Notes under the pieces: model-generated
Told to the model about the DNA's origin: nothing
The model's database searches: none
The model's input: only the letters and a program-made list of their open reading frames with translations
Origin: a virus
Lineage: Duplodnaviria; Heunggongvirae; Uroviricota; Caudoviricetes
Direction: 5' to 3' (one strand)
Virus record (IMG/VR): IMGVR_UViG_2541047679_000006
Location: 1 to 42,066 of that record
Length of the DNA: 42,066 bases
Part shown: positions 1,419-18,854 of the stretch, piece by piece
How positions within the stretch are numbered: the first letter of the stretch is position 1
Layout: each line of letters opens with the position of its first letter
Position numbers and translations under genes: made by a program

Positions 1419-2489
1419 TTATTTGATTTCAATTTTGTCCCACTCCCTGCCTCTGTCATCACGATACTGTGATGCCATGGTGTCCGACTTATGCCCGAGA
1501 AGATGTTGAGCAAACTTATCGCTTATCTGCTTCTCATAGAGTCTTGCAGACAAACTGCGCAACTCGTGAAAGGTAGGCGGATCCCCTTCGAAGGAAAGAC
1601 CTGATGCTTTTCGTGCGCGCATAAAATACCTTGATACTGTGCCGGATGAAAGCGGTTCGCGACGAGTAGATGCAATTATGGTTTTTCCACCAAGAATCTC
1701 TTTGCATTTATCAAGTGTTTCCTTCATTGATATCCCGAGAGCATCAACATGCAATGCTGTTGGGATGGCAATTTTTACGCCTGTTTTGCTTTGCTCGACA
1801 TAAAGATATCCATCTACGATATCAGACCACTTCATTTCGCATAAATCCCCAACTCGCTGCCCGGTAACAACAGCCAGTTCCATTGCAAGTCTGAGCCAAC
1901 ATGGTGATGATTCTGCTGCTTGATAAATTTTCAGGTATTCGTCAGCCGTAAGTCTTGATCTCCTCACCTCTGATTTTGCTGCGCGAGTGGCAGCGACCGG
2001 GTTTGTTGTTATATGGCCTTCAGCTATTGCCTCTCGGAATGCATCGCTCAGTGTTGATCTGATTAACTTGGCTGATGCCGCCTTGCCCTCGTCTATGTAT
2101 CCATTGAGCATTGCCGCAATTTCTTTTGTGGTGATGTCTTCAAGTGGAACATCAGGTAGACCCCTCCTTATTGCTTTAATTTTGCTCATGTAATTTATGA
2201 GTGTTTTCTGCTTGATTCCTCTACTGGCGAGTATTTTTTCGTAGCGATCAAGCCATGAATGTAACGTAACAGAATTATCACTGTTGATTCTCGCTGTCAG
2301 AGGCTTGTGTTTGAGTCCTGAAAATAACTCAATGTTTGCCTGTATTGCTTCAGTAATTGCTATCCTCCTGTCTCTGCCTAATCCGAACTCTTTACCCGTC
2401 CTTGGGTCCCTGTAGCAGTAATATCCATTGTTTCTTATATAAAGGTTAGGGGGTAAATCCCGGCGCTCATGACTTCGCCTTCTTCCCAT
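1419..2489 (-). CDS. int: Integrase, tyrosine recombinase (lambda Int type)
   Basis: 356-aa translation MGRRRSHERRDLPPNLYIRNNGYYCYRDPRTGKEFGLGRDRRIAITEAIQANIELF… is essentially lambda Int; ATG verified at 2489-2487. Confidence 0.95.
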   Translation of the reverse strand: MGRRRSHERRDLPPNLYIRNNGYYCYRDPRTGKEFGLGRDRRIAITEAIQANIELFSGLKHKPLTARINSDNSVTLHSWLDRYEKILASRGIKQKTLINYMSKIKAIRRGLPDVPLEDITTKEIAAMLNGYIDEGKAASAKLIRSTLSDAFREAIAEGHITTNPVAATRAAKSEVRRSRLTADEYLKIYQAAESSPCWLRLAMELAVVTGQRVGDLCEMKWSDIVDGYLYVEQSKTGVKIAIPTALHVDALGISMKETLDKCKEILGGKTIIASTRREPLSSGTVSRYFMRARKASGLSFEGDPPTFHELRSLSARLYEKQISDKFAQHLLGHKSDTMASQYRDDRGREWDKIEIK

Positions 2490-2685
2490 TTCTGATCCTC
2501 TTCAAAAGGCTACCTGTTACTGGTCGATTTAAGTCAACCTTTACCGCTGATTCGTGGAACAGATACTCTCTTCCATCCTTAACCGGAGGAGGGAATATCC
2601 TGCATTCGCGCACCCATCGACGAACTGTTTCAAGGCTTCTTGGGCGCCGCTGGCGTGCGTTCCACTCCTGAAGTGTTAAGTACAT
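2467..2685 (-). CDS. xis: Excisionase (lambda Xis type), overlapping the int start
   Basis: 72-aa translation MYLTLQEWNARQRRPRSLETVRRWVRECRIFPPPVKDGREYLFHESAVKVDLNRP… matches lambda Xis; overlap with int as in lambda. Confidence 0.9.
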   Translation of the reverse strand: MYLTLQEWNARQRRPRSLETVRRWVRECRIFPPPVKDGREYLFHESAVKVDLNRPVTGSLLKRIRNGKKAKS

Positions 2686-2704
2686 CGCAAAGTCTCCGCA
2701 ATTA

Positions 2705-2733
2705 CACGCAAGAAAAAACCGCCATCAGGCGGC
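2705..2733 (-). terminator. Candidate intrinsic terminator upstream of xis (hairpin GCCGCC-TGAT-GGCGGT followed by a T-run on the minus strand)
   Basis: Inverted repeat with G-U wobble plus TTTTTTCTT read on the minus strand; overlaps the stop of the 55-aa ORF. Confidence 0.35.
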
Positions 2734-2892
2734 TTGGTGTTCTTTCAGTTCTTCAATTCGAATATTGGTTACGTCTGCATGTGCTATCTGCGCCCATATC
2801 ATCCAGTGGTTATAGCAGTCGTTGATGTCCTCTGCTTCGATAACCCTGTTGAATGGCTCTCCGTTCCATTCACCTGTGACTCGGAAGTGCAT
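2725..2892 (-). CDS. Hypothetical small protein (55 aa) upstream of xis
   Basis: ATG at 2892-2890 preceded by GGAGA; translation MHFRVTGEWNGEPFNRVIEAEDINDCYNHWMIWAQIAHADVTNIRIEELKEHQAA; below the ORF-track size cut-off. Confidence 0.4.
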   Translation of the reverse strand: MHFRVTGEWNGEPFNRVIEAEDINDCYNHWMIWAQIAHADVTNIRIEELKEHQAA

Positions 2893-3240
2893 TTATCATC
2901 TCCATAAAACAAAACTCGCCGTAGCGAGTTCAGATAAAAGAAAACCCGCACTCGGCGGGTTCGCATTCGTTCAAATTGCGTTTACTTCTTGGCGTTCTGT
3001 TCATCCATATCGATATACCATGGGTTGCTTCCCTTGGGCATGTTTAACGACTGCTCGCGATAGTATCTGATGCGCTCCATGAAATACTCGCGTGAGTGCT
3101 CAGGTTGCTCTCATGCTACCTGCTCAGTGATAACAGGTATATTAAGGCGCTCTCTGTACTCCATGCCTGATGCTGCAAGGTCAACGTTTACCTTGTTCTG
3201 TTTTTCTTTCGATTTCTCGGCGATGTTATGCCTGACATTG

Positions 3241-3483
3241 TCAACCAGCCTCCTTCTGAACATAACGGTTATAAATCAGTCCCTGAGGGCCATAAGGAAG
3301 CGGGATGTGCAACTCCTCTGGTTCAGAAACTATCCATTCCCCGGCCATCTCCGCTGGAGAGGTAATGATAAGTTGTTTGCTAATAAAAGGACCACTCCTC
3401 TCAACAACAAGCTTACCATCTTCATTAATAAAAGCTTGGATGTCAGGTGTGCTTCCACACTTGGTGATGCAGCGTTTGAACAT
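3241..3483 (-). CDS. Hypothetical protein (80 aa)
   Basis: ORF with ATG start at 3483-3481; an unusual C7 tract (3491-3497) lies just upstream; no recognisable family. Confidence 0.3.
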   Translation of the reverse strand: MFKRCITKCGSTPDIQAFINEDGKLVVERSGPFISKQLIITSPAEMAGEWIVSEPEELHIPLPYGPQGLIYNRYVQKEAG

Positions 3484-3610: not shown

Positions 3611-4219
3611 TCACCCATCTTGCTGCGGTGCTACTATTGAAAAGTACTCACACCCTTTAGCCCAAATAGTTTTGATAGTTGTCCAACTGACTGGAACCTT
3701 GATTTCGATTCTCCCGCTGCCGTCACAAGTTTCGCAATCATCATCACCAAAGCATTCCGGGCAGCTTATAAACGTAGTTTCTGAAAATTCACCGGATAGC
3801 ACACCCTTAGCGCCGTTCTCAGCGGTTAGTTTCTTCGGCACTATAACCCAACCATCCGGAGTTACCGGAGAGTTGCCCGATGGCTCGTTCAACTTGCAAG
3901 TTTGGCTTACAGGTTCAGCTTCCAGTTCTGCTATGCGCTTTTTTGCTGCTTCCAGCTCGCCAAGCAGCGCCAAGACGGTAGCCGGATTGGCTGCGGCGAT
4001 GAATTCAGCATTGGCCTGCTGTTCCATTTGGAAATCTTCATCGAAACCGCTTTCTGGATGCGCTCCTTCAATTCTGCAAATGGGAAGATATCCAACAACT
4101 TCACGATGAATTAGCGCATCACCAGCATCAAATCTCTCCTCTCCATATTCGAGCGACCACACACCACACGTTGCTTTTTCTGCTGCCTCACGCAGTGCCT
4201 GATAGTCAATCTTGTTCAT
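3611..4219 (-). CDS. Ea22/Ead-like early protein (coiled-coil N-terminus, Cys-rich C-terminus)
   Basis: 202-aa ORF, ATG with GGTGATG RBS; composition (…LLGELEAAKKRIAELEA… then CPECFGDDDCETCDGSG) resembles the Ea22 family of lambdoid b2/early regions. Confidence 0.5.
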   Translation of the reverse strand: MNKIDYQALREAAEKATCGVWSLEYGEERFDAGDALIHREVVGYLPICRIEGAHPESGFDEDFQMEQQANAEFIAAANPATVLALLGELEAAKKRIAELEAEPVSQTCKLNEPSGNSPVTPDGWVIVPKKLTAENGAKGVLSGEFSETTFISCPECFGDDDCETCDGSGRIEIKVPVSWTTIKTIWAKGCEYFSIVAPQQDG

Positions 4220-4220
4220 G

Positions 4221-4520
4221 TCACATCACCCTGAATCCGTTGCATTTACGTAAGAAATCGCAGATATAGCCCTTCATTTTTTCATGCCAATCTCGATCAT
4301 TCCCATTGCACCAACCATCAGGTGGAGTCCAGTTTTCTATCAGAGCAGCCATTTTCTTTGCTTTCGCCGGAGTAGCTGTTGCGGTATCGCAGTAATGACG
4401 AGTGTCAACCAACGCATCCATACCATCGATATCAAGTACGCAAAACCATGTGTGATTCGGAATTCCTACAGGTGGTATTTGTTGCCCACGTCGACGTTTA
4501 TCAATAAGATATACACTCAC
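4221..4520 (-). CDS. Hypothetical early-left protein (99 aa, GTG start)
   Basis: ORF with GTG start preceded by GAGG; stop abuts the next gene; unrecognised. Confidence 0.45.
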   Translation of the reverse strand: MSVYLIDKRRRGQQIPPVGIPNHTWFCVLDIDGMDALVDTRHYCDTATATPAKAKKMAALIENWTPPDGWCNGNDRDWHEKMKGYICDFLRKCNGFRVM

Positions 4521-4939: not shown

Positions 4940-5109
4940 TTGTTTAATTTCTTCCCACTCCGCAACATCGCATTCAGATATTTGTTTTGATTCACTGATG
5001 GAAAAGAATTTCTCTTAAGCAATTCCTCTCTCGATGGCATTGGCTTTACGCGTTGGCGAATAATCATTTCTGCCGGAAGAATGCCGGGATTGTATGCAAG
5101 TCCTCTCAT
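4930..5109 (-). CDS. Hypothetical small protein (59 aa)
   Basis: ATG at 5109-5107 with GGAG RBS 7 nt upstream; just below the track cut-off; no family recognised. Confidence 0.3.
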
Positions 5110-5125
5110 GGTAAACTCCTCTTTG

Positions 5126-5440
5126 TTAATTTATTCGTATGCCCGCTCTTTCTTCATCGAGTTTTTTTAGCTTGTATCTCATAGCTCTTACTGAATAAAT
5201 TGAGCGGCAGGTTGCAATTGCTATTTCTTCTGCGGAGAACTTACCGAAAAGTGATACTTCGGCTCTTGTCCATCGTCTTCCACGAAGTCGGCTAACAATG
5301 TCAGCGCCAATCCTTGTTGCTTTCGCCATTACTGCTTTTTCAGTCCTTTCCAGTTTTTCAGCGATAACTTCAACTGGCATTGTCGCCGCTACTTCGCGCA
5401 AGAAATCGACTTCCCATTTCTCCCAAGGAGTCTTTTTCAT
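5126..5440 (-). CDS. Hypothetical early-left protein (104 aa)
   Basis: ATG-initiated ORF in the same operon orientation; unrecognised. Confidence 0.45.
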
Positions 5441-5451
5441 AGTCGATACCG

Positions 5452-5940
5452 TTATTTGATAAGAAGTGAAGGTTTCCCAACTTTGAGTTGAGCGCCGGGG
5501 ATATTTATTCCTGCTTTTAGTTGGTGTTTGATTGCCAGTTTGTCGGCTTTAATTGTCGTTTCAAACTCAACGTATTCAGGAGGAAGGGCGCTTGAGTCGA
5601 TGATTTCTACAATTTCTGACGGTTTGCGGATTGTTACCTGGTGAATACCTGCTCGAATCTTTTTCTTGCCAACCATTTCAAGCGATGACGCTATATATGA
5701 TTTGATGCTGTCAATCTTATTTTGAATTACTGCGGCTCGCTCATTCAGCGACTTTGCCTCTTCCTTGAGGCGTTCAGCATAACCAGATTCATTTTTAATG
5801 ACGGAAAGAAGTTGCTCTATTTTATCGGTAAATTCTCCTTCCATGCCTTCTATTGTGTCAGCAATCATCTCTGGCTCTAAATCTGAATCCATCAGCTTTG
5901 CGTATTCATTGGCTATTTCATACAGTTTGCTCACTGGCAA
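5452..5940 (-). CDS. Gp157-family protein (recombination-module accessory); probable real start GTG at 5934
   Basis: Translation (…KLYEIANEYAKLMDSDLEPEMIADTIEGMEGEF…KSLNERAAVIQNKIDSIKSYI…) resembles the siphovirus Gp157 family usually found next to recT/erf; GGAGG RBS 6 nt before the GTG. Confidence 0.55.
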   Translation of the reverse strand: MPVSKLYEIANEYAKLMDSDLEPEMIADTIEGMEGEFTDKIEQLLSVIKNESGYAERLKEEAKSLNERAAVIQNKIDSIKSYIASSLEMVGKKKIRAGIHQVTIRKPSEIVEIIDSSALPPEYVEFETTIKADKLAIKHQLKAGINIPGAQLKVGKPSLLIK

Positions 5941-6829
5941 CCTCCAGTTTCGCTTTGCATTCTATGTAAATGGCTTGTACGTTCTGCTGCAATTTCATTC
6001 CAGATGTCAGGCGATATGCTTCTGCAAAATATCGCTTCAAATCATCCATGTTTTCAGCCTGAGCCATTTCATCACAAAGAAGTTGTGCTTTATCCGTTAT
6101 TTCCTGCTGGCGTTTCCGTTCATCTTCGCGGATATCTTCCTCTGATTTGTGCGGCATAACTGGTTCAGTCCACACACCTTCTTCTTCGTTTAGTACGTGA
6201 ATAGCACTATCAAGACGTGATGCCTTAGGCCAATACTTGCTTGCACGCTTTACGACCGTCTTTCGCGCCATCTCATTCCAGTGATTTACCCATGGTCCTT
6301 TATCGCTGAATGCTGCCTTGCTTGTTTTCCTTACAGCCTCAATTTCAGCCAGACTCATCTCTTCCGTTAGATAATCACCTGCTGGCGTCTTAACTGTGCA
6401 GTAAACGCCAACGATATCACCACGATCACCGAAGGCGTTGTATTTATGGGTTGGTGCTTTATCAAGCCCGTTTGACTCATAGGTATCGTTAGCATGAACA
6501 AGTTTTGCCTGACCCCATGAGATAACACCAGACTCCATTGCAATATGGAGCAATCCCATATAACTGATATCAAGGCAAACCATGCCGTCGCGCGGAACCA
6601 GATAAGCCAGTTTGCTGGCCGGGTTTAAGGTGATGCCGATCGCCGCAACATTGATGATGGCGTTCTGTGCGCTGGTTGGATTTGCCAGTGCCGTTTTAGC
6701 CAGGTAATCGTTTTTCTGGAAATACTGAATTGCAAACTGGCTTTCCTTAGCCCATGTCACCGTCTGTTCAGTCAATGCTCCGCAGAATAACTGCTCTTGC
6801 TGTTTAACGAATTCAACGATATTGCTCAT
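5918..6829 (-). CDS. recT: RecT-family single-strand annealing recombinase
   Basis: 303-aa translation recognised as RecT/Bet-superfamily; ATG verified at 6829-6827. Confidence 0.8.
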   Translation of the reverse strand: MSNIVEFVKQQEQLFCGALTEQTVTWAKESQFAIQYFQKNDYLAKTALANPTSAQNAIINVAAIGITLNPASKLAYLVPRDGMVCLDISYMGLLHIAMESGVISWGQAKLVHANDTYESNGLDKAPTHKYNAFGDRGDIVGVYCTVKTPAGDYLTEEMSLAEIEAVRKTSKAAFSDKGPWVNHWNEMARKTVVKRASKYWPKASRLDSAIHVLNEEEGVWTEPVMPHKSEEDIREDERKRQQEITDKAQLLCDEMAQAENMDDLKRYFAEAYRLTSGMKLQQNVQAIYIECKAKLEVASEQTV

Positions 6830-7137
6830 GCAGCTTCTCCAAAAATGTGTCTGCGTTTGAATATTGCGAAGGCATATTCAGCCTTAACTCTTTCGGTTAT
6901 TGCATCCCAGAACCATTCAGCGGCTTTTTCCTGATAGTTACAATCATCATCTTCCAGCCAGTCGATAGCATCCTTAGTATGTTCATCTGGTTTATATGAG
7001 CGAAGCATTTCGCTTATTGGGTCGCAACGTTTGCAGAGGCGATCAACTTCACTGTTGATTCGTTCGTAATCTTCATCAGTAAAACTTGCGATTATTTGCG
7101 ATATTTCACGCTTATCATTCAGAGTCAGAATCATCAT
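6826..7137 (-). CDS. Hypothetical acidic protein (103 aa) immediately upstream of recT
   Basis: ATG-ATG start at 7137; overlaps the recT start by 4 nt; no nuclease motifs recognised. Confidence 0.45.
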   Translation of the reverse strand: MMILTLNDKREISQIIASFTDEDYERINSEVDRLCKRCDPISEMLRSYKPDEHTKDAIDWLEDDDCNYQEKAAEWFWDAITERVKAEYAFAIFKRRHIFGEAA

Positions 7138-7565
7138 CTTTCTCCTGTTCTTTGTGCTGATTGAGCATTTTGTTCATCTGACGAATGAATTCTTCGTCTG
7201 ACCAGTTATCTGTAAAACTCATTTCCTGCGATACCACGGAAGGTTGATAGCTGATTTCATCGCTTTATTTGCTTCAAGCCACATTTTTGAATCACCAATA
7301 AATCTGGCTATTACTGCTTTGTTCTGTGCAGCACGAAGCATCTGGTGATTAATGGCTATTTCATTGCGCATAACGCCTCCAGTTGTTTCTTTGCTGCTCT
7401 GATTAATTGTTTAACTCGGCGTGATAATTCAGATTCGTGCGGGTAGAAAGCGGACATGACGCCGCTACCCGCGAGCTGAAAGTGCATCATGGGTAACTCC
7501 TTATATTTGATTGCATAACGAAAACGCCTCGAGTGAAGCGTAATTGGTATGCGGTAACGCCGCGC

Positions 7566-7934
7566 TCAGGCGGCCTTGATAGTCATATCATCTGAATCAA
7601 ATATTCCTGATGTGTCGATATCGGTAATTCTTATTCCTTCGCTACCATCCATTGAAGGCCATCCTTCCTGACCATTTCCATCATTCCAGTCGAACTCACA
7701 CACAACACCATATGCATTTAAGTCGCTTGAAATTGCTATAAGCAGAGCATGTTGCGCCAGCATGATTAATACAGCATTTAATACAGAGCCGTGTTTATTG
7801 AGTCGGTATTCAGAGTCTGACCAGAAATTATTAATCTGGTGAAGTTTTTCCTCTGTCATTACGTCATGGTCAATTTCAATTTCTATTGATGCTTTCCAGT
7901 CGTAATCAATGATGTATTTTTTGATGTTTGACAT
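7566..7934 (-). CDS. Hypothetical acidic early protein (122 aa), possibly DUF2528-like
   Basis: ATG with GAGGAT RBS; family assignment is from memory only. Confidence 0.45.
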   Translation of the reverse strand: MSNIKKYIIDYDWKASIEIEIDHDVMTEEKLHQINNFWSDSEYRLNKHGSVLNAVLIMLAQHALLIAISSDLNAYGVVCEFDWNDGNGQEGWPSMDGSEGIRITDIDTSGIFDSDDMTIKAA

Positions 7935-7953
7935 CTGTTCATATCCTCACAGA

Positions 7954-7980
7954 TAAAAAATCGCCCTCACATTGGAGGGC
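7954..7980 (-). terminator. Intrinsic terminator (GCCCTC-N6-GAGGGC hairpin plus U-run on the minus strand) downstream of the AT-rich cassette
   Basis: Perfect 6-bp stem followed on the minus strand by TTTTTTAT; read directly. Confidence 0.5.
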
Positions 7981-8084
7981 AAAGAAGATTTCCAATAATC
8001 AGAACAAGTCGGCTCCTGTTTAGTTACGAGCGACATTGCTCCGTGTATTCACTCGTTGGAATGAATACACAGTGCTTATTCGTA

Positions 8085-8555
8085 CTAATAAAATACCCAA
8101 TTTTCTGTTTCTTGGTTGTGTCCAAAGTTATATTCAATATCTGGTGTTGATGTATCAATATTTTTCATCCCATCAACAAGAGTTGATACAACAGCCAAAT
8201 CTTGTTTTATTCTCATTAAATGGTATTTCTTCCGGCGCAATAAACTTTCAATGGCAAGTTTCTTCGTTGGGAATGCAAAAGATCTTTCTGCATTTTTTGC
8301 TACTTTCTTAATTGCATATCTATTTCTCCTTTGTTTCCATTCCTGTAACCACTGATTTGGTGCTGGTTTAAAATTAACAATCCAATGCGCAGGAACCAAC
8401 CATGCATAATGCTCTGTCTGATGAAAAGCTATATATTGAAGTGCGAATATTTTGATTCCATCTTCTTCAACTGTCGCCTGGAATCTCCAGAAAACAGGCA
8501 TTCCATCATGTTCAGTTTCTGATTCAGGAAAAGGTACGCTCCATGATTTTGTCAT
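8085..8555 (-). CDS. Hypothetical protein (156 aa), AT-rich accessory gene, second gene of a two-gene cassette
   Basis: ATG at 8555 with GAGGTGA RBS; visibly AT-rich relative to neighbours; perfect 9-bp inverted repeat (8043-8051 / 8062-8070) just downstream of the stop; no family recognised. Confidence 0.55.
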   Translation of the reverse strand: MTKSWSVPFPESETEHDGMPVFWRFQATVEEDGIKIFALQYIAFHQTEHYAWLVPAHWIVNFKPAPNQWLQEWKQRRNRYAIKKVAKNAERSFAFPTKKLAIESLLRRKKYHLMRIKQDLAVVSTLVDGMKNIDTSTPDIEYNFGHNQETENWVFY

Positions 8556-8618
8556 ATATCACCTCAAATAATTCAGTACAGTGTTTATTCTCTTGTTTAT
8601 GCCAAAAATAAAGGCCGA

Positions 8619-9242
8619 CTATGAGGCCTCGGAAGGAAGTCCAATCATCTTATTCAAATCTTCTACCCGTAAAGCAGGAAGTGCTGTACTTGCTTTATCT
8701 GCTTCTTTTGGTAGCAATTCTTTGCTTTCAGGCCAAACTTCAATAAGTCGCTTAACTGTTGTGACTGAGTTCAAAGCAGCCCATACATTTGATTCGATAT
8801 CCTTTTTCTTGGCTTCAAGTTTTTGTTGCAATGCGCAGATTTCATCAAACCTTTTTGTTATTTCGTGTTCTGCGTCAAACATGCATTTATCTTTTTCTGG
8901 GGTGGGGAGCAATATATCTTCACCGTTGCCGTCTTTTCCGTATGAATGCCAGCCAACCCTTCTTCCAGATACAATCAGATAAATCGAAGTAGAACGAACA
9001 TCGTATGAGTAAAATGAACATCCCATCTTTTCAAGTTCTTCACTTATAGCTACCAACTTGGATGATAACTGATCCACTTCCTCAGTTTTCTTTTTACCTC
9101 CAAACGCAATAACTCTGGCGTCAAGTGCAAGCTGGTTCTTTAACTTTGTTACTTCTTCAAGTTCAGTGAAAACCCCAGACTTAATTAAAGCGTTACGAGC
9201 GATTTCCTCTTTCATTCTCGTAGTTAAGCGGATTGATGACAT
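8619..9242 (-). CDS. Hypothetical protein (207 aa from the ATG at 9242), AT-rich accessory gene, first gene of the cassette
   Basis: ATG at 9242-9240 with GAGAGG RBS (the track's longer ORF begins at a TTG); AT-rich; no family recognised. Confidence 0.55.
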   Translation of the reverse strand: MSSIRLTTRMKEEIARNALIKSGVFTELEEVTKLKNQLALDARVIAFGGKKKTEEVDQLSSKLVAISEELEKMGCSFYSYDVRSTSIYLIVSGRRVGWHSYGKDGNGEDILLPTPEKDKCMFDAEHEITKRFDEICALQQKLEAKKKDIESNVWAALNSVTTVKRLIEVWPESKELLPKEADKASTALPALRVEDLNKMIGLPSEAS

Positions 9243-9356
9243 ATTAATTCCTCTCAAATAAGTGGTTTGCTGCCTAATTTCATTTTCTGGCGACCAACAC
9301 AAGTCACACCCATTTCACTGCGTGGCTTGCGGTAGTAAATTAGGTTTGTTCAGACA

Positions 9357-9378
9357 ATAAAAAACCCACCGAAGTGGG
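9357..9378 (-). terminator. tL1-like intrinsic terminator (CCCACTTCGGTGGG hairpin plus U-run) downstream of N and the 112-aa gene
   Basis: Perfect 5-bp GC stem with TTCG loop, followed on the minus strand by TTTTTTAT. Confidence 0.55.
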
Positions 9379-9717
9379 CTATGACCATTTTTTATTTGGA
9401 TTTCGTTGGTGAGCGTGATTAACAACTCTGTGCATTACATCCTCATATTTTTCATCTTCAATTTTTTCGACATCGCGAGGAAATGGTGTTGCTAATGCTT
9501 TGTCAACTTTGTCCATTGGTTCTTCATTAATCTTATATTCAGGACCGTCATCTATAGCATTAAATCCAGGTGTTACACCGTTTTTTAATGCATATGCTAT
9601 CCTTTTTTCCCATCTCGCTATTCTCCTCCTGTCTCGAGATGTAAGACCTCTATCAGATACTTTTCTGTTTTGTCCTCGGTCAGGATTAACATAAATAGTC
9701 TTTTTCACCATAAGCAT
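9379..9717 (-). CDS. Hypothetical basic protein (112 aa from ATG at 9717) immediately downstream of N
   Basis: Starts 3 nt after the N stop (TGA-GT-ATG) and ends at the tL1-like hairpin; unrecognised. Confidence 0.45.
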   Translation of the reverse strand: MLMVKKTIYVNPDRGQNRKVSDRGLTSRDRRRIARWEKRIAYALKNGVTPGFNAIDDGPEYKINEEPMDKVDKALATPFPRDVEKIEDEKYEDVMHRVVNHAHQRNPNKKWS

Positions 9718-9719
9718 AC

Positions 9720-10025
9720 TCAATAAGCACCGTACGGTAGTTTACTGTACAATTTTATTTTTTGGACTGCATGTATTTTGTTTCCTAACGGGTTTGAATC
9801 TTTGTAATAAATACTTCTATTTTTTCGAACGACTTCTTCTTTCTTCTTGCAGCAAAGGCTTCCGAGTGATGCTGCTTTGTCTGCTCTGACGCAACCAGAG
9901 AGCTTTAGCGCAATTTTTCGCGCCAGTGCTTCATTACTGCGTCGCTCGGCAATAAGTTCTGCTCTGCGAGCTTTGTAGCGGCTTTTTGCCGTACCTTTGG
10001 ATTCTTTCCAGACAATGGTTACCAT
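9720..10025 (-). CDS. N: Antitermination protein N (phage-21-type arginine-rich motif)
   Basis: Translation contains GTAKSRYKARRAELIAERR, which I recognise as the phi21 N boxB-binding ARM peptide; position between pL/nutL and tL1; AGGAGA RBS. Confidence 0.8.
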   Translation of the reverse strand: MVTIVWKESKGTAKSRYKARRAELIAERRSNEALARKIALKLSGCVRADKAASLGSLCCKKKEEVVRKNRSIYYKDSNPLGNKIHAVQKIKLYSKLPYGAY

Positions 10026-10135
10026 GATGGTCTCCTTTCAGTGGCTTTGGCGCATGACGCGTCGAGGTGCTTATCTTCTCGATCGCTGTCTTGCAGCTGC
10101 AATTCGCGCCATCCCCAAAACCACTCAAGTTCTGG

Positions 10136-10177
10136 TCTCAACGGTTAGGTTGAGAGTCCGTCGATGTTAAAGAGCCT
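10136..10177 (-). promoter_or_regulatory. nutL: boxA (GGCTCTTTAACA, 10166-10177) and boxB hairpin (UCUCAAC-CUAACC-GUUGAGA, 10136-10156)
   Basis: boxA matches the CGCTCTTTAACA consensus at 11/12; boxB is a 7-bp stem with a 6-nt loop read on the minus strand; correctly placed between pL and N. Confidence 0.6.
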
Positions 10178-10222
10178 GCCAATCTGTTCCGTTTGGCTTC
10201 CAGCGTCCTGCTGATGGCTTAA

Positions 10223-10250
10223 ATTTAAGACTTCTTAATTTATTGGTCAA
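10223..10250 (-). promoter_or_regulatory. Candidate pL promoter (-35 TTGACC, -10 TTAAAT) with operator palindrome TTAAGA-N2-TCTTAA (10225-10238)
   Basis: Sigma-70-like hexamers on the minus strand with ~16-bp spacing; the operator half-site is the same as in the oR region. Confidence 0.4.
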
Positions 10251-10315
10251 GTGCATTTTTGAAGAAAACTTAATTTTATGGGCGTGAATTTAGTTTGTCT
10301 TTGATTTTTAACGGG

Positions 10316-10339
10316 AAATAAAAAAGGGGCGAAAGCCCC
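10316..10339 (-). terminator. Intrinsic terminator at the end of cI (GGGGC-GAAA-GCCCC hairpin plus U-run on the minus strand)
   Basis: Perfect 5-bp GC stem abutting the cI stop codon, followed on the minus strand by TTTTTTATTT. Confidence 0.55.
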
Positions 10340-10990
10340 TTAAGGAAGGTTTGCTAGCTTGGCATCAACGACAACGCCAATGATTTTACAGTTCCCATTG
10401 ATTTCAATCATTGGGTATTGTGGATTGAGTGGTTTCAGGAATTTTCTACCGGCATCAATAACTAACTTTTTGAATGTCGCCTCGTTTTCTCCTTCAAGTT
10501 TGGCGACTACCAGCTTTCCATTACGTGGTTCGACTTCTGGGTCGACGAGAATAATCATCCCCTCAGGAATACTCAGTCCTGCCGGGGCAGTCATTGAATC
10601 GCCTTTAACGTCGAGCCAAAAAGAGTCTTCAGAACAATCTACCGTTGTGTCGTACCAGTTATCTATTGCACGCCTATGATATGGCTCTACAGCTTCCATC
10701 CAACATCCTGCGCTTACCCAACTAATTAGAGGATACGAACCTCTTGGATCATGCCTGCTGTGATAGGCAATGTTTGAAAGACTATCCTCTCCTTTCAACA
10801 GGTAATCAGGGGAGCACTGCAAAGCCTTGGCTAAGGCCAATAGGTTTTCACCATTGGGCTCAGTTTCAGATCGCTCCCATTGGGAAATAGCAACATTAGA
10901 CACGCCAACCATCTTGCCAAGGGCAGCCTGCCTAATCTTGAGTTCTTTTCTGCGAGCGCGAATACGCTCACCCATCAGTTGTGTATTCAT
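10340..10990 (-). CDS. cI: CI-type prophage repressor (N-terminal HTH, C-terminal LexA/S24-like autopeptidase)
   Basis: 216-aa translation with HTH (…QAALGKMVGVSNVAISQWERSE…), an Ala-Gly site (SAG) and GDSM…KK Ser/Lys dyad motifs; divergent from cro across operator palindromes. Confidence 0.85.
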   Translation of the reverse strand: MNTQLMGERIRARRKELKIRQAALGKMVGVSNVAISQWERSETEPNGENLLALAKALQCSPDYLLKGEDSLSNIAYHSRHDPRGSYPLISWVSAGCWMEAVEPYHRRAIDNWYDTTVDCSEDSFWLDVKGDSMTAPAGLSIPEGMIILVDPEVEPRNGKLVVAKLEGENEATFKKLVIDAGRKFLKPLNPQYPMIEINGNCKIIGVVVDAKLANLP

Positions 10991-10992
10991 AG

Positions 10993-11055
10993 TTAAGACA
11001 TCTTAAATAAACTTGACTTAAGATTCCTTTGGTGGATAATTTAAGTGTTCTTTAA
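10993..11055 (+). promoter_or_regulatory. oR/pR region: operator palindrome TTAAGACATCTTAA (10993-11006), pR -35 TTGACT (11013-11018) and -10 GATAAT (11035-11040), second operator-like repeat 11041-11055
   Basis: Palindrome and hexamers read directly; 16-bp spacer; located between divergent cI and cro. Confidence 0.55.
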
Positions 11056-11070
11056 TTTCGGAGCAAGTCT

Positions 11071-11256
11071 ATGTACAAAAAAGATGTTATTGACCACTTC
11101 GGAACCCAGCGTGCTGTTGCTAAAGCACTAGGCATTAGCGATGCAGCAGTCTCTCAGTGGAAAGAAGTTATCCCAGAGAAAGACGCCTATCGATTGGAAA
11201 TCGTTACAGCTGGCGCCCTGAAGTATCAAGAAAGTGCTTACCGCCAAGCGGCATAA
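11071..11256 (+). CDS. cro: Cro-like repressor (61 aa, HTH)
   Basis: Small HTH protein (…GTQRAVAKALGISDAAVSQW…) first in the pR operon, divergent from cI. Confidence 0.7.
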   Translation: MYKKDVIDHFGTQRAVAKALGISDAAVSQWKEVIPEKDAYRLEIVTAGALKYQESAYRQAA

Positions 11257-11262
11257 GCAAAT

Positions 11263-11303
11263 TGCTCTTTAACAGTTCTGGCCTTTCACCTCTAACCGGG
11301 TGA
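11263..11303 (+). promoter_or_regulatory. nutR: boxA (TGCTCTTTAACA, 11263-11274) and boxB hairpin (UCACCU-CUAACC-GGGUGA, 11286-11303)
   Basis: boxA matches consensus at 11/12; boxB loop CUAACC is identical to the nutL boxB loop. Confidence 0.6.
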
Positions 11304-11371
11304 GCAAACATCAGCGGCAAATCCATTGGGTGTGCCGCTATAACTCAATATCAATATAGGAAAATTAACAA

Positions 11372-11668
11372 ATGGCACAAGCAAGCTACAGCAAGCCAAC
11401 ACAGCGAGAAATTGATCGCGCTGAAACTGATTTACTCATCAACCTGTCAACGCTTACCCAGCGCGGTCTGGCAAAGATGATTGGCTGTCATGAATCGAAG
11501 ATAAGCAGAACGGACTGGAGATTTATTGCTTCGGTCTTGTGTGCTTTCGGAATGGCATCAGACATCAGTCCGATTAGCAGGGCTTTTAAGTATGCGCTTG
11601 ATGAAATCACAAAGAAAAAATCCCCGGCCGCCACCGAGGATTTTAAGCAAATTGATATGCAATTCTGA
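11372..11668 (+). CDS. cII: CII-like transcriptional activator
   Basis: 98-aa translation; C-terminus …KKKSPAATEDFKQIDMQF parallels lambda CII …KKRPAATERSEQIQMEF; position after cro and nutR. Confidence 0.75.
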   Translation: MAQASYSKPTQREIDRAETDLLINLSTLTQRGLAKMIGCHESKISRTDWRFIASVLCAFGMASDISPISRAFKYALDEITKKKSPAATEDFKQIDMQF

Positions 11669-18612: not shown

Positions 18613-18854
18613 TAACTGAGCCGTAGCCACTGGCTATCCTGGATTCATCAGTGATAGTTACGCTGCGGCCTTCTACACATGACCTTCGTGAAAGCGGGTG
18701 GCAAGAGGTTGCGCTAACAACCTCCTGCCGTTTTGCCCGTGCATATCGGTCACGAACAAATCTGATTACTAAACACAGTAGCCTGGATTTGTTCTATCAG
18801 TAATCGACCTTATTCCTAATTAAATAGAGCAAATCCCCTTATTGGGGGTAAGAC

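Follow-up and report, generated by a model that had tools for sequence, protein, structure and literature searches.

The window, 42,066 nt of viral DNA, carries two small AT-rich genes (ORF207 and ORF156, named for the lengths of their products) between two intrinsic terminators in the leftward early operon of a prophage, and the question raised by this locus is whether the two form a unit carried for the benefit of the lysogen. The original prediction took them for a moron cassette insulated by terminators and expressed from the prophage, providing lysogen defence, restriction alleviation or superinfection exclusion. Our analysis favours, with moderate confidence, another reading: two unrelated mobile one-gene modules that share the slot between N and cIII and serve as early lytic accessory genes dependent on pL and N.

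The window is filled by a complete P22-like lambdoid prophage whose insertion point is ybhC/ybhB, and E. coli UPEC_U013 is 100% identical to it over the 1551 nt searched (positions 7900-9450). Both ORFs lie in the N-to-cIII interval of the pL operon, together with N and a gene for a Nun-like factor (Table 1). The pL-like promoter is found downstream of a cI-like repressor gene and its terminator, at the position of pL in mEp235 and HK97, and the mEp235 record annotates a Nut boxA at the place homologous to the nutL-like site. In mEp235, the DNA of which is 98% identical across 10100-8574, the counterparts of the next two genes are annotated as antitermination protein N and Nun; the Nun-like product has an arginine-rich N-terminus and a C-terminal end reading KKWS. 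In lambda, the slot in question holds ral and sieB. The predicted correspondence with the ral/sieB/ea10 place of lambda was borne out, the next gene encoding an Ea10-like DUF2528 protein; in the 933W record its counterpart carries the annotation "similar to Ssb, Ea10 of lambda". Here as in lambda, the region belongs to the same operon at the same position, has variable and non-essential content and is directly followed by the Ea10 homolog. That gene is a module of its own (7952-7553), which 933W and Stx1a phages carry and HK97 and mEp235 lack. An Rfam scan of 7000-10500 gave no match.

Table 1. Features of the N-to-cIII region of the prophage, in the order of leftward transcription
Feature	Position	Strand	Evidence or detail
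pL-like promoter	10222..10250	-	TTGACC, 17 nt, TAAATT; consensus scan, 9/12 matches
nutL-like site	10136..10175	-	boxA-like GCTCTTTAAC (10175-10166) and boxB-like hairpin TCTCAAC/GTTGAGA (10155-10136); sequence inspection
N antiterminator gene, 101 aa	9720..10025	-	Pfam N_peptide, weak match, E 0.003
HK022 Nun-like transcription termination factor gene, 112 aa	9379..9717	-	phrog_5632 "Nun-like", E 9e-71
tL1-like intrinsic terminator	9354..9380	-	7-bp GC-rich stem, UUCG loop (9380-9363), T-run; -11 kcal/mol
55-nt leader	9253..9307	-	100% identical to the sequence 5' of gp45 in HK97 and 933W (pairwise blastn)
ORF207, stand-alone Nmad5-family protein	8619..9242	-	PF18757; module ~9252-8574
Weak terminator-like hairpin	8611..8630	-	6-bp stem, interrupted T-run, -9.4 kcal/mol; overlaps the Nmad5 stop codon
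ORF156, HK97 gp45 family protein	8085..8555	-	phrog_1636; module 8571-8076
AT-rich hairpin	8038..8075	-	17-nt arms, 4-nt loop; at the junction of gp45 module and backbone (8076)
Downstream intrinsic terminator	7953..7982	-	8-bp stem (7982-7961), T-run; scan
Ea10-like gene, DUF2528, 122 aa	7566..7934	-	PF10800, E 2e-47

Both minus-strand ORFs were confirmed at the predicted lengths (207 aa from the ATG and 156 aa), as were their good ribosome-binding sites (GAGAGG, 7 nt from the ATG, and GAGGTGA, 3 nt from the ATG, respectively). The statement that neither protein resembles anything that can be named did not hold for either one. ORF207 matches the Pfam family Nmad5 (PF18757) with 239.4 bits against a cut-off of 27 (E 5e-71), its residues 4-203 spanning positions 1-206 of the 206-position profile, above the curated gathering threshold. 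It also matches phrog_1965, is represented in RefSeq as WP_021511839.1 ("Nmad5 family putative nucleotide modification protein") and is the same gene as mEp235 gp37 (97.6% identical). ORF156 is HK97 gp45 (AAF31125), with 99.4% amino acid identity over 100% of the length, and 933W ST933Wp19; the protein is 100% identical in 933W, phi24B (vb_24B_11c) and BP-4795, and the gene is also present in H-19B and many other Stx phages. Its RefSeq accession is WP_000167595.1 and its match to phrog_1636 covers positions 1-156 of 156 (E 2.7e-112). The tblastn comparison with phage records (HK97 gp45, mEp235 gp37) therefore gives clear homology to ordinary lambdoid early proteins, an outcome that the original prediction had itself named as counting against it. 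Judged from sequence comparison, both are real genes under purifying selection (dN/dS 0-0.06 for gp45 and 0.14-0.18 for Nmad5).

The Nmad5 family extends well beyond the lambdoid phages. It is found in HK542 and Stx1a phages and, as distant homologs, in Pseudomonas phage M6 (a Yuavirus; ORF056), the Schitoviridae phage Shigella B2 (gp19) and Dhillonvirus, in each of these three in early or replication regions, as in further prophages of Klebsiella, Proteus and Salmonella. All 120 listed homologs carry PF18757. The most conserved element of the family is the C-terminal motif T-x-K-R-L-I-x-x-W-P-E, kept in ORF207; the conserved polar residues are mostly basic, and the invariant ones are mostly Arg, Lys, Asn and Glu. 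The AF2 model of ORF207 (pLDDT 85.7) suggests a helical-bundle protein. No catalytic-type motif was found in the conservation pattern, and no enzyme-like fold was matched.

For the gp45 family, Pfam gave no match with any of 42 members, including distant relatives from a search of 1.84 billion representatives, and family records list no function for any member. The centre of the protein is strongly basic (net +13, residues ~61-120), whereas its ends are acidic. Its AF2 model is poor (pLDDT 60), which leaves both the fold and any binding of nucleic acid conjectural. Searches for either protein in NCBIfam were negative, and against PDB chains both gave only chance matches (E at least 0.13), the profile of the 42 gp45 members likewise matching none. 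In the literature no mention was found of the accessions or PHROG identifiers of either protein; the papers retrieved with HK97 "gp45" concern the gp45 proteins of other phages.

The two genes move independently. Pairwise blastn against mEp235, HK97, 933W, an Stx1a phage and VR50 gave a module map in which Nmad5 occurs without gp45 (mEp235, Stx1a phages) and gp45 without Nmad5 (HK97, 933W, VR50), each gene being absent in otherwise near-identical phages. The junctions consist of 7-9 nt overlaps at the RBS-like sequence TTATTTGAG together with the shared leader, which marks the upstream junction of the slot, and the shared terminator segment. HK97 and 933W encode a gp45 of the same length as ORF156, in the corresponding position between N and the shared terminator, but there it follows N by 58 nt, whereas here the Nun-like gene, a terminator and the Nmad5 gene intervene. 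Among 5426 complete E. coli genomes, gp45 is present in 598 (~11%) and Nmad5 in 211 (~4%), with the adjacent pair in only 48. What had been described as a two-gene cassette is thus a set of independent single-gene modules with their own junctions.

We also considered that adjacency might be selected, the two proteins being one functional pair such as toxin and antidote or sensor and effector. The genes are neighbors here and in the 48 E. coli genomes, and in the Vibrio phage vB_Vp_PvVp04_M distant homologs of both families are encoded about 1 kb apart in one operon. Each gene is, however, several-fold commoner without the other, and the separate mosaic junctions also speak against a pair. Co-occurrence within the slot is near chance level: of 2253 genomes with a match to part of the 7900-9450 query, 48 have both genes, against an expected number of about 56. 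Even the count of 48 may be inflated by clonal descent, as many of the listed matches are human clinical isolates with an identical match (93% coverage, 97.6% identity). A profile scan of 25 fetched loci detected both families together only in this window and in the Vibrio phage, with no partner within 4-6 kb in seven independent Nmad5 and six gp45 contexts, and the 750-bp gap preceding the Cronobacter gp45 homolog revealed no hidden Nmad5 gene. Taken together, this makes a functional pair extremely unlikely.

The claim of foreign composition stood in part. Both ORFs fall within the lowest-GC stretch of the prophage. The mean over its 63 genes is 45.9% GC; ORF156, with 35.5%, ranks second from the bottom (z = -2.4) and ORF207, with 39.7%, fifth (z = -1.4). 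The Nun-like gene (36.6%) and the Ea10-like gene (38.5%) on either side are equally AT-rich, however, and the low-GC block therefore reaches beyond the two ORFs, covering 7566-9717 (38.2%, versus 47.0% in the remainder of the prophage).

Two intrinsic terminators, each with a hairpin and a T-run, do bracket the ORF pair as predicted, yet neither belongs to it as a property of cargo. The upstream one ends the N/Nun-like unit. The downstream one lies inside a 124-nt backbone segment (8076-7953) that HK97, mEp235 and 933W have in common, regardless of the gene in front of it; at the homologous site the HK97 GenBank record lists a putative terminator, which our scan of HK97 recovered. A terminator moving with the insert was not observed, the site at 7982-7961 being common to phages with either gene alone. 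In 7000-11500 we counted nine terminator-like sites versus 4.5 +/- 2.8 in shuffled sequences; this number by itself is weak evidence, and the weight lies with conserved position. Between the two ORFs there is also the weak hairpin at 8630-8611, missing from the earlier account of the locus, which is the sole terminator-like element that travels with the Nmad5 module.

An own promoter is a defining feature of morons. A minus-strand sigma-70 scan of 9362-9243 and 8618-8556 detected no site with at least 9/12 matches before either gene, a result at the level of a consensus scan, which could miss promoters that are weak or not of the sigma-70 type, as well as read-through in the lysogen. With no promoter-like site upstream of either ORF, expression in the lysogen is unlikely. 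Both genes would be transcribed from pL only, polymerase modified by N at nutL reading through the terminator after the Nun-like gene, and they would accordingly be delayed-early lytic genes, silent in the lysogen. For HK97 and 933W, gp45 would be immediate-early because the 58-nt spacer between N and gp45 contains no terminator-like site; the scan of HK97 gave no strong site from N to gp45, and from pL to the gp45 terminator the sole terminator-like match was a weak 5-bp one within N. A term search for the phi24B homolog vb_24B_11c did not find it in a paper on proteins detected in phi24B lysogens, a weak negative.

These results bear directly on the moron and defence reading. In its favor, the genes are accessory and variable, present or absent between conserved flanks in mEp235, HK97, 933W, an Stx1a phage and VR50; they are part of the most AT-rich region of the prophage, a combination of composition and distribution also expected of defence cargo; they occupy the place of ral and sieB; and a terminator follows them. 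For lambdoid morons, such as HK97 gene 15, the definition is reportedly that of Juhala, Hendrix and colleagues (2000). Like the genes studied here, morons are extra DNA missing from close relatives, with a GC content below the average of their neighborhood. They are autonomous units inside the late operon, however, whereas direction and context are here those of the early operon, the terminators are those of N/Nun and of a backbone shared with phages that lack these genes, HK97 gp45 follows N without a strong terminator-like site between them, and no promoter was detected. The relatives of Nmad5 in early or replication modules of non-lambdoid phages also argue against lysogen defence.

Comparison with known exclusion and anti-restriction proteins gave no support for such a role. 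SieB is a membrane protein, and lambda sieB has its own promoter. Neither ORF product matched the Ral or SieB family in Pfam, where Nmad5 is the only significant family for ORF207 and none was found for ORF156. Unlike SieB, the products have no membrane segment, as would be expected of a SieB- or Rex-type protein (maximal Kyte-Doolittle hydropathy over 19 residues, 0.64 and 0.56), and unlike sieB the genes have no detected promoter of their own. The acidity of DNA mimics such as Ocr and ArdA was not found (pI 5.9, with 34 acidic and 32 basic residues, and 9.1). Against the defence models of PADLOC-DB 2.0, ORF207 had no match and ORF156 only a chance-level one with Cas1_II (E 0.018, 12 bits). 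Neither protein is in the set of 200 accessory genes that Silas et al. screened; the orf184 of that set, a ral-region gene of mEp237, encodes a different protein of 107 aa. What remains of the original interpretation is an accessory, AT-rich N-to-cIII slot with content absent in near relatives, together with a possible role in counter-defence, and we regard an insulated moron expressed for the protection of the lysogen as unlikely.

The family name suggests another function, namely that Nmad5 helps to modify nucleotides or DNA bases of the phage genome, possibly with gp45 as a partner. The M6 homolog ORF056 is indeed encoded inside a thymidine-hypermodification gene cluster, the Shigella phage B2 gene adjoins thymidylate synthase, and a validated bacterial defence system joins NMAD, 5-hmdU kinase and thymidylate synthase domains (PMC13092281). 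ORF207, in contrast, is a stand-alone gene of a temperate phage: the prophage has 68 annotated features, none of them a hydroxymethylase, kinase, aGPT-Pplase, methyltransferase or PAPS reductase, and so Nmad5 would have no place in a base-hypermodification pathway here. Base-modification enzymes were likewise not found within the flanks examined in mEp235, Klebsiella and Proteus, an association of Nmad5 with modification enzymes being seen only in M6-type phages. Since neither a conserved catalytic-type motif nor a match to an enzyme-like fold was found, we consider this function very unlikely, and the name Nmad5 looks misleading for the lambdoid members.

Within the preferred reading of two separate early lytic modules, an accessory role in binding nucleic acid or protein is probable for both products. 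Much less certainly, both would be non-enzymatic and would promote lytic growth through contacts with nucleic acid or with a protein of the host or the phage, in host takeover or counter-defence; a role in lysogen protection is not apparent. In Dhillonvirus, the nmad5 mutation K296E escapes Tmn immunity and deletion of the gene does not, and cloning of the gene is toxic (PMC11846954). We found that K296 aligns with R165 of ORF207, within the conserved motif. The Dhillonvirus protein is longer than ORF207 (254 aa in phage bob, 334 aa as annotated in SM_S22), and its gene lies beside head genes. It is possible, though doubtful, that one or both proteins are early counter-defence factors and that the N-to-cIII slot of lambdoid and Stx phages is an anti-defence island. 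Non-enzymatic Nmad5 would then engage DNA or a Tmn-type (KAP NTPase) immune protein via T162-x-K164-R165-L-I-x-x-W-P-E, which would explain how charge reversal at the equivalent lysine lets Dhillonvirus defeat Tmn, and the basic centre of gp45 would neutralise another host system.

The arrangement at this locus is ordinary lambdoid mosaicism and not a new defence island, and both genes are already catalogued in RefSeq, Pfam or PHROGs. The locus thus offers little as a discovery; its use is to draw attention to a pair of very common early genes without assigned function, one of which, Nmad5, is spread over many unrelated phages besides its occurrence in E. coli genomes. Both proteins are easily testable in HK97, mEp235 or lambda hybrids, and a role in counter-defence, if true, would be relevant to which hosts Shiga-toxin phages can infect.

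The two genes ORF207 and ORF156 lie in a P22-like prophage located between ybhC and ybhB in the RefSeq annotation of the corresponding 42-kb stretch of E. coli UPEC_U013 (100% identity over positions 7900-9450 of the window). The ORF207 product matches Pfam PF18757 (Nmad5) over its full length (E = 5e-71) as well as phrog_1965, in agreement with its RefSeq name, and is 97.6% identical to gp37 of mEp235, with further close copies in HK542, Stx1a phages and Stx2a phages. The ORF156 product (phrog_1636) has 99.4% identity with HK97 gp45, rising to 100% for its counterparts in 933W, phi24B, BP-4795, Stx2 phage 86 and Min27, but lacks relatives in Pfam, NCBIfam and PDB. A gp45 profile search of 1.84 billion representatives retrieved 87 proteins, most of them uncharacterised and of 130-155 aa, that share a beta region (Y-Y-R...G...H-E-T) and a helix (K-R-x-x-K...R-F-A-F...R-K-x-x-Q-L); no known domain was found in the distant relatives either. 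Such clear homology to ordinary lambdoid early proteins (mEp235 gp37 and HK97 gp45) is one of the outcomes that the original prediction itself named as refuting it. The good ribosome-binding sites it described are present, as strong Shine-Dalgarno sequences at both ORFs. Substitution patterns (gp45 against HK97, 933W and VR50: dN/dS 0-0.06 at dS 0.045-0.069; Nmad5 against mEp235 and an Stx1a phage: dN/dS 0.14-0.18 at dS about 0.098) indicate that both are real genes.

Features of the early-left region and modules bounded by pairwise alignment (window positions unless stated)
Feature	Position	Strand	Remarks
cI-like repressor gene	10340-10990	-	own terminator after
pL-like promoter	10250-10222	-	
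nutL-like boxA	10175-10166	-	GCTCTTTAAC; hairpin 10155-10136
N gene	9720-10025	-	
Nun-like gene	9379-9717	-	
Terminator after Nun-like gene	9380-9363 + T-run	-	
ORF207 (Nmad5)	8619-9242	-	
ORF156 (gp45)	8085-8555	-	
Terminator after ORF156	7982-7961 + T-run	-	
Ea10-like DUF2528 gene	7566-7934	-	then cIII and kil; product very acidic (pI 4.3), single hydrophobic stretch (residues 50-68, Kyte-Doolittle 2.05)
Leader, 55 nt	9307-9253		100% identical to sequence 5' of gp45 in HK97 and 933W
Nmad5 module	about 9252-8574		missing in HK97, 933W, VR50
gp45 module	8571-8076		missing in mEp235 and Stx1a phage
124-nt segment with downstream terminator	8076-7953		common to all phages compared
Ea10-like module	7952-7553		in 933W and Stx1a phage; missing in HK97, mEp235
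cIII segment			next after Ea10-like module
Weak terminator-like hairpin	8611-8630	-	6-bp stem, -9.4 kcal/mol, T-run interrupted; overlaps Nmad5 stop codon
AT-rich hairpin	8038-8075		17-nt arms, 82% complementary, 4-nt loop; no T-run
Terminator-like hairpin	7524-7541	-	ACGCTTCACTCGAGGCGT + TTTCGTT; directly 5' of cIII
holE-like DNA polymerase III theta pseudogene (RefSeq)	about 2983-3264		early-left region; internal stop
tRNA-Thr (RefSeq)	18671-18746		between Q and holin gene
Distant gp45 homologue, vB_Vp_PvVp04_M	3989-4438 of that locus		27.6% identity
Distant Nmad5 homologue, vB_Vp_PvVp04_M	5436-6068 of that locus		38% identity

The junction map resolves the proposed two-gene cassette into separate modules whose junctions show overlaps of 7-9 nt at the RBS-like TTATTTGAG. 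Of the 5426 complete E. coli genomes, 598 carry gp45 DNA, 211 carry Nmad5 DNA and 48 carry both, as judged by a match to 80% or more of the 1551-nt query. Shared descent may inflate the last count, since many of those listed come from human clinical isolates with one and the same match (93% coverage, 97.6% identity). When 25 fetched loci were scanned with profiles, both families were present in only two, the window and Vibrio phage vB_Vp_PvVp04_M, where the distant homologues share an operon about 1 kb apart. Homologues of gp45 without Nmad5 were found in a Salmonella siphovirus, beside xis and int (Pectobacterium) and in the N-cIII interval (Cronobacter). The features are catalogued already, and their arrangement is a textbook case of lambdoid mosaicism.

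The AT-richness ascribed to the cassette is real but extends beyond it. ORF156 (35.5% GC) and ORF207 (39.7%) rank second and fifth lowest among the 63 prophage genes, and the adjoining Nun-like (36.6%) and Ea10-like (38.5%) genes rank third and fourth. The block 7566-9717 has 38.2% GC vs 47.0% in the remaining prophage, and just 0.7% of windows of that size have GC this low. Low GC is a feature of the whole first part of the early-left accessory region rather than of these two genes specifically.

Both predicted flanking terminators fold as expected, but the insulation proposed for them is not a trait of the cargo, as the upstream one ends the N/Nun-like unit and the downstream one belongs to the 124-nt segment common to the compared phages. 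We detected no sigma-70-like site on the coding strand 5' of either ORF. In HK97 (locus positions 2059-3100) and 933W, gp45 lies 58 nt after N, where our prophage carries the Nun-like gene, its terminator and Nmad5. Together, the lack of a promoter-like site, the upstream terminator closing the N/Nun-like unit and the HK97 layout suggest that both are ordinary pL-operon genes rather than autonomous units expressed in the lysogen. They would be delayed-early here, dependent on N-mediated read-through. In HK97, gp45 would be immediate-early because no strong terminator-like site lies between N and gp45; from pL to the post-gp45 terminator the single match is a weak 5-bp one within N. The gp45 homologue was not picked up by a term search of a paper that catalogues the proteins seen in lysogens of phi24B, a weak negative.

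Three further hairpins were noted. The one at the Nmad5 stop codon moves with its module. The AT-rich one falls exactly where the gp45 module meets the shared backbone and may be a site of RNA processing or a recombination junction. The third, 5' of cIII, is kept in HK97, and with it several terminator-like sites stand in series across the N-to-cIII interval. N and the HK022 Nun-like factor are encoded in tandem, as in mEp235; the latter (phrog_5632, E = 9e-71) has an arginine-rich N-terminus and ends in ...KKWS. In HK022, Nun takes the place of N, hence their presence in one phage is a curious combination.

The reading of these genes as a defence or exclusion moron is not borne out: neither protein matches PADLOC defence models, contains a membrane segment or has DNA-mimic acidity, and neither gene has a promoter-like site of its own. 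The gp45 protein has seven tryptophans, a strongly basic centre (net +13, about residues 61-120) and acidic ends; its model is poor (pLDDT 60), with no significant fold match. The Nmad5 model is confident (pLDDT 85.7) and comprises a three-helix bundle, a beta-hairpin insert, a long helix and a small C-terminal helical part. Its conserved polar residues are mostly basic, with no catalytic-looking motif among the conserved residues.

Relatives of Nmad5 occupy early or replication regions in very different phages: within a thymidine-hypermodification cluster (M6), beside thymidylate synthase (Shigella B2, Schitoviridae), in the nin region (SPN3UB), immediately 3' of the repressor or N (Klebsiella and Proteus prophages), and beside genes for a PDDEXK nuclease, an Enc34-type ssDNA-binding protein and DNA polymerase A (Salmonella). 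RefSeq annotates no base-modification enzymes in our prophage, and therefore the family name is not descriptive of function there. In a Dhillonvirus, the Nmad5 substitution K296E escapes Tmn immunity but deletion does not, and cloning of the gene was toxic (PMC11846954). K296 of SM_S22 (5005-6009 of its locus) aligns with R165 of our protein (codon about 8748-8750), within T-x-K-R-L-I-x-x-W-P-E, the most conserved motif of the family. These findings point to an interaction surface, not an enzyme. Our best guess is that Nmad5 and gp45 are non-enzymatic early accessory proteins of lytic growth; we conjecture that they act by binding nucleic acid, a host protein or a phage protein.

Overall, what was observed in the original prediction was largely correct and its interpretation mostly wrong. 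The remaining interest lies in two very common, functionally unassigned early genes, one of which, gp45, is carried by 933W and many further Stx phage records.
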